Positions 58,889 through 63,681 of a stretch of DNA of 64,000 bases are shown in pieces. The notes under the pieces were generated by a model. That model saw only the letters and a list, made by a program, of their open reading frames with translations, did not search any database and was not told where the DNA came from. The stretch spans positions 384,001 through 448,000 of the forward strand of contig OZ255836.1 of the NCBI GenBank assembly GCA_965277715.1. The letters run 5' to 3'. Position numbers and translations under genes: made by a program. The DNA comes from Gammaproteobacteria bacterium (GTDB taxonomy: Bacteria; Pseudomonadota; Gammaproteobacteria; JBCCGL01). Every line of letters starts with the position of its first letter. Positions within the stretch are counted from its first letter, which is position 1.

Positions 58889-59693
58889 TAAAAGGGTCAA
58901 GTATACTATTGCATAATTTTGGTGTACTGCTATACTCCTTAAATGCCAAGACCTCTACGCATAGAGTATGAAAACGCCTACTACCACGTAACGTACCGAT
59001 GCACCGTTATTGCAGAGGCGTTACAAAGCGATCTGCATTGAAGAAAATAGTTATCAGCTTCAACTCTCTCGCTATATTCACCGAAACCCGCTGGAAGCTA
59101 GGTTAGTAAAGAATTTGGCGGATTACCCCTGGTCCAGTTACAACGATTATGCAAATGGTCGTTCATCACAGGAGTGGCTTTACCAGGGGGATATCCAGGC
59201 TCAGCTCGGTGTGCCTCATCAGCGGTATTTTGCGCAACGATACTGAGTTTATGTGGAGCAAGGCATTGATGAAGAAATCAGGCGATTCTACGGACGGGGA
59301 AATCAAATGCCTTATTTGGGCAGTGAGGATTTCCGCAGTTGGGCCTACGAGCAACGTGAAACTATAGATAGTGCAGTTAACCGTAGTGACTTACAGCAGT
59401 TTAGACCTATGGTAGGTGAATGGATTATTCGGGTGTCGAAATCGTTGAAGATTGAGCGTGAAGATATCCTCCGACCGTCAAGGGGAGGGTTGAAAGCGAA
59501 AGTAGCGAGAGATTTATGTATGTACCTGTGTCGAGAAGAGGGTGGGCATAAGTTGGTAGATATTGCCGAAGTCTTCGGTTTCAAGCGATACGGTAGTGTA
59601 TCAACAGCTATTAGGCACTTTTAAACTCAATTGGCAGGTGATTTAACGTTGCAAAAATTACTTAAAAAACTTATATGATACATGACCCTTTTA
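58889..59693 (+). mobile_element. RAYT-like element copy 1, defective (224-bp deletion plus nonsense codons), ends retained
   Basis: Near-identical to 60883-61917; ends TAAAAGGGTCAAGTAT / ATACATGACCCTTTTA (15/16 inverted match). Confidence 0.92.
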
Positions 59694-60882: not shown

Positions 60883-61917
60883 AAATAAAGGGGTCAAGTA
60901 TACTATTGCATAATTTTGGTGTGCTGCTATACTCCTCAAATGCCAAGACCTCTACGCATAGAGTACGAAAATGCCTACTATCACGTAATGAACCGAGGTA
61001 GGGGAAGGCAGCGTATATTTCCTGACGATGAGTACTACTCGCTTTTTCTTGAACTCCTTGCGCAGGCTTATAGACGTTTTGGCCTACAGGTTCTTTGCTA
61101 TTGCTTGATGAGTAACCACTATCACTTATTGGTGAAGACACCGGAAGCTAATTTGGGACGGTGTATGCGGCACATCAATGGGCTTTATACACAGCGGTAC
61201 AATAAACAGAAACGTACCGATGGGCCGTTATTTCAGGGGCGTTACAAAGCGATCTGCATTGAAGAAGATAGCTATCAGCTTCAACTCTCTCGCTATATTC
61301 ATCGAAACCCATTGGAAGCCAGGTTAGTAAAGGATTTGGCAGATTACCCTTGGTCCAGTTACAACGATTATGCAAATGGTCGTTCATCACAGGAGTGGCT
61401 TTACCAGGGGGATATCCAGGCTCAGCTCGGTGTGCCTCATCAGCGGTATTTTGCGCAACGATACCGGGCTTATGTGGAGCAAGGCATTGATGAAGAAATC
61501 AGGCGATTCTACGGACGGGGAAATCAAATGCCTTATTTGGGCAGTGAGGATTTCCGCAGTTGGGCCTACGAGCAACGTGAAACTATAGATAGTGCAGTTA
61601 ACCGTAGTGACTTACAGCAGTTTAGACCTACGGTAGATGAATGGATTATTCGGGTGTCGAAATCGTTGAAGATTGAGCGTGAAGATATCCTCCGACCATC
61701 AAGGGGAGAGTTGAAAGCGAAAGTAGCGAGAGATTTATGTATGTACCTGTGTCGGGAAGAGGGTGGGCATAAGTTGGTAGATATTGCCGAAGTCTTCGGT
61801 TTCAAGCGATATGGTAGTGTATCAACAGCTATTAGGCACTTTGAAACTCAATTGGCAGGTGATTTAACGTTACAAAAATTACTTAAAAAACTTATATGGT
61901 ACTTGACCCCTTTATTT
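60883..61917 (+). mobile_element. RAYT-like element copy 2, intact, with perfect 18-bp terminal inverted repeats
   Basis: AAATAAAGGGGTCAAGTA (60883-60900) / TACTTGACCCCTTTATTT (61900-61917). Confidence 0.92.
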
Positions 61918-62638: not shown

Positions 62639-62797
62639 AAATAAAGGGGTCAAGTATACTATTGCATGATTTTGGTGTGCTGCTATACTCCTTAAATGCC
62701 AAGACCTCTACGCATAGAGTATGAAAACGCCTACTACCACGTAATGAACCGAGGTAGGGGAAGACAGCGTATATTTCCTGGCGATGAGTACTATTAA
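62639..62797 (+). mobile_element. RAYT-like element copy 3: left end and first 33 codons only
   Basis: Same left IR, promoter and MPRPLRIEYENAYYHVMNRGRGRQRIF; identity stops at about 62793. Confidence 0.92.
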
Positions 62798-63466
62798 AAA
62801 CACTGCCGGGTGTAGGGCCTCTGGTCGCCACTACCTTGTTTACAGCAATGGGCGATCCGGGTTTTTATAAAAACGGGCGTGAGTTTTCCGCCTTTTTAGG
62901 TCTCGTTCCTCGTCAATATAGTTCGGGGGGCAAAACACAACTCAAAGGTATCAGTAAACGCGGGGACGAACACGTGCGCACTTTGTTGATACAGGGGGCG
63001 CAAGCGGCATTAAGTCGAATGCCTAAACACGATGATGGGCTAAGTCGTTGGGCCTGTCGTGTCAAAGCACGTCGGGGCCATTGTGTGGCGGCGGTGGCAT
63101 TGGCCAATAAGCTCGCCAGAATTAGCTGGGCGGTAGCGGCTAATAATACAACTTACGCGCATAAAACAGCTTAATAACGTCGTTGGATATTTCTTACCAC
63201 GAGGTAGCGAAAGAGCAGTAAAGGGTATAACAGGTTAAACCGGCTCAGACAGAACCTGGAGGGGTCATGGTCTTCACAGACCGATTGCTTGATGAGGTGT
63301 CTGAGCACGGTTCCCATTATGGCTCTGGACGGATAAACAAATACAATCCGTCCTATCGAGAAGCCGGATATATGACTGCTAACCTTATTTACTGTGACTG
63401 CACTGAACGCTAAAAAATGAATGAACGATTAAAAAATTGTTGAATTTAACTGCGGGTCCATATATG
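62794..63466 (+). mobile_element. IS110-family (IS1111-type) element, 3' half and right end
   Basis: LKTLPGVGP, FSAFLGLVPRQYSSGGK, ISKRGD..VR.LLIQGA, VALANKLARI (stop 63174); about 290-bp 3' non-coding end finishing GGTCCATATATG. Confidence 0.9.
63230..63380 (+). ncRNA. Predicted bridge/seek RNA of the IS1111-type element
   Basis: Stems GCTCAGACA/TGTCTGAGC, GGTCT/AGACC, GGCT/AGCC, GGACGGAT/ATCCGTCC enclose two internal loops with target- and donor-matching segments. Confidence 0.7.
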
Positions 63467-63476
63467 ACCCCTTTAT
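63465..63476 (+). repeat. Outer part of the right IR of RAYT-like copy 3
   Basis: TGACCCCTTTAT directly after the IS end. Confidence 0.85.
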
Positions 63477-63509
63477 ACTGGCTACACCAAACTGCGCCAA
63501 GATATAATC

Positions 63510-63681
63510 TACGCTAAAGATACGACAAACGATGGATAAAAACTCCTCATACTACAAGCAAATTTCACTGCCAGTGCAAACACTCCTCTATATTGCGCGG
63601 GAGTCTTGTTTCGCCCTCAAAGGTGGTACGGCAATGAACTTATTTGTCCGAGATTTTCCACGATTATCCGTGGATATAGAT
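63510..63681 (+). pseudogene. 172-bp diverged duplicate of the abiEi end / abiEii start
   Basis: Ungapped match to 57008-57179. Confidence 0.9.

Follow-up and report, generated by a model that had tools for sequence, protein, structure and literature searches.

A truncated IS1111-type insertion sequence in the inverted repeat of a RAYT-like element carries a putative bridge RNA that partly matches this repeat

The window (the whole stretch of DNA analysed here, 64,000 nt) contains the 3' third of an insertion sequence (IS) of the IS1111 group, whose right end lies in the right inverted repeat (IR) of an element encoding a Y1, RAYT-like transposase. We consider it probable, at about 0.82, that an IS1111-group IS inserted into the Y1 IR, that a deletion followed, and that the remnant still carries a complete bridge/seek RNA. 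The IS, with a transposase (tnp) of about 341 aa in full-length relatives, would have entered between TACT and TGACCCC of the right IR of Y1 copy 3, in the same orientation as the Y1 gene, at a site of the expected form xxxCT^TGACCCCT (the caret marks the insertion point). The later deletion took the rest of Y1 copy 3 together with the left part of the IS, roughly 1.6 kb as estimated from copy 2 and full-length relatives, thereby fusing Y1 codon ~32 to tnp codon 217. The RNA would have been made and would have guided the insertion; the lost left flank presumably read ...TACT, the left junction being deleted and the site being read from one flank; and the Y1 IR would be the cognate rather than a near-cognate target, although the 3' guide arm fits it only partly. 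The coordinates of the features are collected in Table 1.

Table 1. Features of the IS remnant, its putative RNA and the adjoining Y1 elements (window coordinates)
Feature	Position	Strand	Basis or remarks
IS1111-group IS, 3' third	62797-63464	+	tnp residues 217-341, 3' non-coding region, right end
IS110/IS1111 transposase, C-terminal part, 125 codons and stop	62797..63174	+	PF02371, 80.2 bits
Putative bridge/seek RNA gene	63219..63391	+	model R1, sole match in 64 kb: 98.9 bits, E 4.7e-27, model positions 1-163/163
Target-binding stem-loop (predicted)	63243..63306	+	outer stem GCTCAGACA (63243-51) with TGTCTGAGC (63298-306); inner hairpin GGTCT/AGACC (63269-82)
5' arm guide GAGGGGUCAU	63259..63268	+	complementary to the top strand (A-TG-ACCCCT) of the right junction, CA being opposite the core TG
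3' arm guide UUGCU (variable), UG (core), A (conserved)	63285..63292	+	sense of the left half-target; would pair with the bottom strand
Right-donor-guide-like segment UCCCAUUA	63312..63319	+	reverse complement predicts a lost left end starting TAATGGGA
Left-donor-guide-like segment AUAUAUG	63368..63374	+	equals right end plus core, repeated at 63460-63466
Right subterminal inverted repeat GGGTCCAT (63454-61) with 3-bp extension ATA, the IS right end	63454..63464	+	sequence
Right flank TGACCCCTTTAT with the core TG; forms the outer half of the right IR in Y1 copy 3	63465..63476	+	same sequence as 61904-15 (copy 2 right IR) and, reverse-complemented, as both left IRs
Intact right IR of copy 2, ATGGTACT^TGACCCCTTTAT, uninterrupted form of the presumed target	61896..61915	+	
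Y1 copy 3: left IR ATAAAGGGGTCAAGTATACT (62641-60) and first ~32 codons, cut by the deletion	62641..62794	+	aligned to copy 2

The transposase fragment is an uninterrupted frame up to its stop codon (63172-74) and shows 82% identity over 125 aa to residues 217-341 of P0001, a relative of 341 aa. P0001 has both PF01548 (DEDD) and PF02371, and it matches NF033542, "IS110 family RNA-guided transposase", with 349.5 bits. The fragment begins at residue 217 and lacks PF01548, the N-terminal DEDD, RuvC-like domain; since P0001 possesses it, its absence from the window copy results from the deletion and is not a family trait. In the translation, GLVPRQYSSGG fits the GL-P----S(T)G motif of the IS1111 group, GL-P----SG being given as a criterion for IS1111-group transposases in the part of PMC11187229 drawn on here. 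About 290 nt of non-coding DNA lie between the tnp stop and the right end (63464), which fits the long downstream region by which IS1111 elements are likewise recognized. The closest relatives of the fragment (70-82% identity) are metagenomic proteins.

Relatives with a homologous RNA end in G.CCAT-ATA and start with a 7-bp extension followed by ATGGACC; the window keeps only the right half of the subterminal repeats, the left end having been deleted. Having lost both the DEDD catalytic domain and its left end, the remnant is incapable of autonomous transposition. No second copy of the IS was found within the 64-kb window, and a distant blastn search of the plasmid collection with the element gave no match. 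The exact 32-nt pattern of the target loop had 0 matches in the genome contigs, where the fragment as a protein query found just 2 distant loci. Two further features of the ends were observed. The right subterminal GGGTC and the target GACCC can form a 5-bp hairpin across the junction (63454-63470), which was flagged as terminator-like, and the left-end repeat ATGGACCC of the relatives is similar to the target TGACCCC.

Three copies of an element encoding a protein of 326-335 aa were recognized near the IS remnant from a reading of the region and the list of open reading frames. Copy 2 is complete (about 60885-61915), and its protein combines Y1_Tnp (PF01797, 51 bits) with a DnaA_C helix-turn-helix domain (Bac_DnaA_C, PF08299). 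Its best NCBIfam match is NF047646, REP-associated tyrosine transposase, with 75.8 bits against a cut-off of 80; the score being under the cut-off, we call the element RAYT-like. REPs are known partners of RAYT elements. The Y1 copies are bounded by the inverted repeat ATAAAGGGGTCAAGTA...TACTTGACCCCTTTAT, and the 12-mer TGACCCCTTTAT occurs at four sites in the window, each the end of a Y1 copy: 60885 (-), 61904 (+), 62641 (-) and 63465 (+). It is to the last of these (63465-76) that the IS right end, ...GGGTCCATATA, is joined, and to judge by this junction the IS did land in the IR of a Y1 element. Copy 3 tracks copy 2 to ...GATGAGTACTA (~62794) and then switches to tnp residue 217 of the 341-aa relative. 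A preliminary description of this DNA had proposed an IS1111-type remnant abutting half of the IR of the Y1 element and a later deletion that fused the start of copy 3 to the middle of the IS. The strings and coordinates of the junction were all verified, PF02371 and the identity to a full-length IS110-family transposase agree with the assignment, and the alignments to copy 2 and P0001 display the joint.

Some observations on the Y1 elements stand apart from the IS. Copy 1 (58890-59690) is degenerate, with an internal deletion near 58990, a frame split into several open reading frames and IRs altered to TGACCCTTTTA. The IRs of Y1 homologues carry tandem sub-repeats of ~13-16 bp with GGGGTCA at the end of each, such as GAAACTGGGGTCA, present two times in a row. 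Such tandem sub-repeats were seen at L290 (G004) 1132-1160, at L288 (G002) 1432-1455 and in the right flanks of L194, L239 and L221, and to judge from their arrangement they look like multiple binding sites.

The relatives of the IS provided an alignment from which the putative RNA could be modelled. Profile scans collected at least 80 tnp loci each from metagenome and genome contigs, with 43-64% identity among the matches listed. Alignment A3 comprises 42 relatives among the matches listed plus the window, 43 sequences in total, and omits L086 and L094, which were regarded as duplicate entries for L085 and L093. Alignment A4, from which the covariance model R1 was built, comprises 41 relatives with the window left out and omits L034, whose aligned part duplicates that of L028. 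None of 200 shuffles of the 292-nt non-coding region folds as well as the native sequence (z = -4.46). In the minimum-energy fold of the single sequence, the 5' and 3' guide arms partly pair with each other, whereas both arms are unpaired and flanked by helices in the 43-sequence consensus. The RNAalifold consensus of A3 has 29 pairs, 21 of them with compensatory changes; 92.8% of the consensus paired cells are pairs, against 27-43% when the partners are slid by 1-3 columns. The covariation score is 0.535 against 0.07-0.13 in the slid controls, and none of 500 shuffles equals the native alignment in these measures. Two-sided changes occur in 8/8 pairs of the outer stem and 3/3 pairs of the inner hairpin (42 distinct sequences). 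Within the covarying 8-bp stem, the target loop of the family runs from a conserved AACCUG to a conserved UGAUGAGG; between them, two variable stretches flank a covarying hairpin.

A search of Rfam 15 at a permissive threshold gave only three chance-level matches (E 0.77 to 7.5), far under the gathering scores, so that membership of the RNA class is judged by the purpose-built model R1. A search of 63100-63520 showed no sigma-70-like promoter. The RNA of published relatives is transcribed from a circle-junction promoter, and such a promoter cannot form at the window remnant. The preliminary description had placed a bridge/seek RNA in this 3' non-coding region and had called for folding it and aligning it to models of such RNAs; both the match to R1, which was built without the window, and the covariation agree with its proposal, and the segments it named fall at guide positions that are unpaired in the consensus. 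From these comparisons, the non-coding region holds a member of this RNA family, complete in the remnant, from which an RNA was presumably produced. As a separate observation, the 5' segment of the RNA (consensus UGAUGG; UAAAGGG at 63219-63225 in the window) is complementary to the left-end-binding segment at 63312-63319 and so mimics the left end; the self-complementary stretch joins R1 positions 3-7 with 98-102. This 5' segment may mask the left-end guide in the free RNA.

Two segments had been named as target guides, AGGGGTCA (63260-63267) and TGCTTGA (63286-63292), and they lie within the 5' arm and the 3' arm of the target-binding internal loop, respectively. The patches at 63259-68 and 63285-92 overlap at TG, the top-strand patch being 5' of the bottom-strand patch. 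This is the order reported for the IS1111 seekRNA by Siddiquee et al. 2024 (PMC11187229), where, in the part drawn on here, the top-strand match is 5' of the bottom-strand match, the two overlap in the target, and the order is reversed with respect to IS110/IS621. Both arms of the family RNAs span a dinucleotide, mostly TG, at the insertion point.

The 5' arm of the window matches its own flank, as reverse complement, over 9 nt exactly, whereas matches of 9 nt or more are found in 3 of 992 guide/flank pairs that are not cognate; past ACCCCT the match extends only through G-T wobbles. Among the relatives, a match of at least 6 nt between the 5' arm and the own right flank is present in 23/32 loci, compared with 51/992 non-cognate pairs. 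The match of the 5' arm to the right junction is convincing. For the 3' arm, the variable part of the relatives matches the left flank over at least 5 nt in 23/35 loci, against 38/1190 non-cognate pairs. Identical guide pairs were collapsed in these arm-versus-flank counts (41/43 and 34/35 kept), and the left and right ends of the relatives were located by regular expressions; a few of them may be misplaced. When the five variable bases of the 3' arm are compared in register with the own left flank, the fit is 5/5 in 21, 4/5 in five, 3/5 in five and lower in three of 34 non-redundant loci, with L027 (2/5) and L007 (0/5), both lacking the ATGG motif, retained in the counts. The window UUGCU fits the IR sequence GTACT (or ATACT) at 3/5 exactly, or at 4/5 with one G-T wobble. 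Among non-cognate in-register pairs (n = 1122), 16.8% reach at least 3/5 exactly and 10.3% at least 4/5 with wobble. Because the score of the window lies within the chance range of non-cognate pairs, the 3' arm speaks neither for nor against the IR as the cognate target. The preliminary description had held that both arms match the halves of the IR and that the RNA appears programmed against it. Its reading of the 5' arm stands; its "6/7" match of the 3' arm is overstated, because it includes the UGA that is present, by eye, in most of the 43 aligned members whatever their target, and the informative 3/5 does not separate cognate from non-cognate pairs.

The donor guides could be followed in the same manner. 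The reverse complement of the segment at the position of UCCCAUUA fits the left junction in 36 relatives at 7/8 in 14, 6/8 in 18, 5/8 in two and 4/8 in two. Variants of the donor segment are matched by variants of the left end, as in TCCCAT with ATGGGA, TGTCAT with ATGACA and TTTCAT with ATGAAA. The segment at the position of AUAUAUG equals the 7-mer of the right end in 28 of 33 family members, and 16 of the 20 loci whose right end is other than ATATATG show the same change in the RNA. The earlier observation that the ATATATG in the second loop repeats the end of the IS thus holds, since this segment covaries with the right end throughout the family. All four types of bridge-RNA guide can be traced in the sequences of the window and its relatives. 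The left junctions show one further regularity: the second core position is A (L-X-A-ATGG...) in 26 of 34 loci (L003-L162), 23 of these 26 loci with an X-A left junction have an X-G 3' arm, and the listed right junctions are mostly X-G. This pattern agrees with "no duplication, 7-bp left extension" as known for IS1111, and the donor and target cores would then differ at one base.

One might suppose that the matches are coincidental and that the region is not a guide RNA at all, as the weak statistics of the 3' arm and the lack of an Rfam family would allow. The match to an independent model, the covariation, and the family-wide concordance of guides with flanks and of guides with ends speak against such a coincidence, which we regard as extremely improbable.

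The closest usable relatives among the matches listed, L085 and L086, belong to genome G002 and provide a control for the register of the guides. Their RNA region is 67% identical to that of the window, and their right ends adjoin TGACCCC. G002 has eight matches to the RNA model, and each of the six insertions whose junctions could be read occupies ATCAAGCTGGC^TGACCCCTTGA, with the form TGACCCC(T/A)TG... right of the junction. The guide arms read (A/U)AGGGGUC, mainly AAGGGGUC, on the 5' side and CUGGC-UG on the 3' side, and these insertions confirm the guide register that the preliminary description had assumed. At L284 the 5' arm is AUGGGGUC and the flank TGACCCCATG, while L278, L281-L283 and L285 have AAGGGGUC and the flank TGACCCCTTG; the comparison indicates that L284 is a one-base natural retargeting in which guide and flank changed together. 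The uninterrupted target occurs at 20 sites in G002 (at most 2 mismatches; five ATG-variant copies are included), against 0 for a reversed control. In the same genome, L280 (contig C32, minus strand, ~669-910 of the reversed locus) has a tandem duplication of the IS tail that lies between the DNA of the donor guide and the right end. At the new joint, the right end CATATA^TG runs directly into the bases after the guide-coding ATATAC^G, where the guide-coding DNA apparently served as a pseudo right end.

A second point of comparison is L213 in the G001 chromosome, the only locus with DNA-level similarity to the window IS among at least 115 loci found by a pattern scan. L213 is another truncated copy, from a close relative; the 5' arm is missing from its RNA, and the remnant starts directly after a REP-like AAAAAGGGGTCAGAGCCCTTTT. 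Its 3' arm reads AUUGCUC-UG, one single-base indel apart from that of the window, its flank is TGACCCCTTTAA, and the adjoining REP reads GGGCTC^TGACCCCTTT on the other strand. Arm, flank and REP of L213 make two alternatives live for the window, namely a slightly different cognate repeat and the drift of a dead copy.

With a different cognate repeat, the RNA would be set for another TGACCCC repeat with ...TTGCT before the core and ACCCCTCC after it, and the insertion into the IR would be off-target, with two mismatches tolerated in the left half. The cognate repeat could then be a REP or a MITE that is related to the IR and lies at another place in the genome, with the site form ...TTGCT^TGACCCCTCC; the uninterrupted site strings relevant to the choice between the IR and such a repeat are TACTTGACCCC and TTGCTTGACCCC. 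The 3/5 fit of the window would find an explanation here, as 21/34 relatives fit their own flank at 5/5 and 26/34 cognate 3'-arm pairs score 4 or 5 of 5, which counts against our preferred account, and so would the REP beside L213. According to the part of Durrant et al. (PMC11208160) drawn on here, natural guide/target mismatches number 0-2 in most cases. However, the window has TACT^TGACCCCTTTAT at each of its four IR copies, no better-fitting site occurs in the 64 kb, and imperfect fits are normal, because 8/34 cognate pairs in the relatives also score 3/5 or less. An off-target insertion of this kind is possible, but we doubt it.

Drift of the dead copy would mean that the arm once matched the IR, or the IR the arm, and that the remnant has changed since the insertion; loss of a single base with respect to the AUUGCUC-UG arm of L213 is one possibility. 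The copy is indeed non-functional and truncated, without the catalytic domain, its arm is separated from that of L213 by the one-base indel, and Y1 copy 1 shows that damage accumulates at this locus. Such decay is nevertheless improbable, since the remaining RNA is intact at 98.9 bits to the family model, the tnp fragment is open to its stop, and the 5' arm still matches at 9/9. We retain insertion into the Y1 IR, which may be the cognate target, as the preferred reading.

The preliminary description had also taken TGACCCC to be a recurrent site. The pattern scan, for a right end followed by TGACCCC, gave the at least 115 loci mentioned above; it is biased to TGACCCC by design, and the adjacent DNA was covered for 80/115. 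An RNA-profile match is present in 32 of these loci, oriented to the junction in 30 and not so in two. Where the left end could be located, the left flanks are mostly AAGACC-TA, and several right flanks have a second TGACCC(C) within 30 bases. Homologues of the window Y1 protein (41-45% identity) in the genomes G001-G005 all have GGGGTCAGG upstream of the gene, and those of G001, G002 and G004 have TGACCC(C) downstream too. In G003, G004 and G005, the IS flanks AAGACC^TGACCCC... read as the IR of Y1 homologues. The motif is thus recurrent, with members of the sub-group in these three genomes flanked by Y1-homologue IRs, whereas the IS target in G002 is a different TGACCCC repeat and not the IR of the Y1 homologue. 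A tblastn search with the window Y1 protein matched only L005, L100 and L200 among the listed loci, and most insertions lie more than 2 kb from a Y1 gene. Since most insertions have no Y1 gene within 2 kb, the usual targets of the IS are probably solo repeats. At L200 a RAYT-like gene is flanked by AAAGGGGTCAGAGCCCTTT-type repeats. The string GNCCATATATGACCCC was considered as a mark of IS junctions only and was rejected, as it occurs in L200 upstream of the RAYT-like gene, where no bridge RNA was detected.

A broader reading would join these observations, and we put it forward tentatively, as less likely to be right than wrong. The IS1111 sub-clade would be a dedicated hyperparasite of one Y1 family (RAYT-like, DnaA_C-fused) and of its REP/MITE derivatives, in hosts that may be marine, often symbiotic, Gammaproteobacteria. 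The 5' arm may be fixed on the invariant end motif GGGGTCA, and the 3' arm may follow the variable inner part of the IR (AAGACC, CUGGC, GAGUC, UUGCU). The asymmetry of the core, with X-A at the left junction and X-G at the right junction and in the B arm, may be systematic in the family, and would then point to an undescribed crossover geometry or a direction lock of bridge recombinases.

The remnant alone changes little, as it is a dead copy. What it offers is a worked natural example in which the sequences of an uncharacterised IS1111 sub-family reveal all four guide segments and covariation allows them to be checked, a one-base natural retargeting in a relative included, and in which an RNA-guided IS family specialises on the ends of another family of selfish elements. 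Such an example may help in annotating these RNAs, which are not represented in Rfam, in sequence-based prediction of IS1111 targets, and in picking natural bridge-recombinase variants with known guide registers.

REP-targeting IS110-family elements were reportedly described by Tobes & Pareja in 2006. In the parts of the papers drawn on here, RNA-guided targeting and natural retargeting in IS1111/IS110, the location of the RNA and the way in which its arms read the two strands are already published (PMC11187229, PMC11208160), and IS110-family elements that target REPs are known (PMC12288879). IS1111 members that target transposon inverted repeats or attC sites have also been reported. A literature search for RAYT with IS110, IS1111 or bridge RNA returned no paper using the term RAYT among the best matches, and the link of IS1111 to RAYT-type elements may not have been spelled out in the literature searched.

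The comparisons that follow are limited to the features described in the parts of the cited papers drawn on here. With ISEc11, ISPa11, ISKpn4 and ISPst6 (PMC11187229), the window element and its relatives share a transposase of 330-350 aa with the GL-P----SG motif, a non-coding region after tnp, subterminal inverted repeats of which the left one has a 7-bp extension (for the window, by way of its relatives), and a short two-patch RNA with natural retargeting through those patches. The window element belongs to another sequence family with another target, a distinction drawn from descriptions rather than sequences; its copy is truncated, and four guide segments are traceable in it, against two target patches in those elements. 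With the bridge RNA of IS621 (Durrant et al. 2024, PMC11208160), it has in common a two-part RNA, a target-binding internal loop, donor-binding segments, a 2-nt core in each guide, and different arms reading the two strands of each DNA partner. In contrast to IS621, the RNA of the window lies in the right end, which is the published location for IS1111, and not in the left; its 5' arm reads the top strand, so that the order is reversed, and the core is TG rather than CT. The donor-binding bases are arranged around a stem or multiloop in the window RNA, whereas IS621 has a simple internal loop, and many IS1111 members are described as having no simple donor internal loop (PMC11208160). The type of target is shared with a published IS1111-group element specific to the terminal IR of another transposon; the host is a Tn3-family transposon in that case, and a Y1 (RAYT-like) element with 20-bp REP-like IRs here. 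Finally, ISPpu9 and ISPpu10 (Pares-Guillen et al. 2025, PMC12288879) also insert at a fixed dinucleotide inside short repeated palindromes, and orphan remnants of RNA genes are present in the genome. ISPpu9 is of the IS110 group, with no subterminal repeats, an AG core and a downstream sRNA, Ssr9, that is not required for transposition (PMC12288879), whereas the window element is of the IS1111 type.
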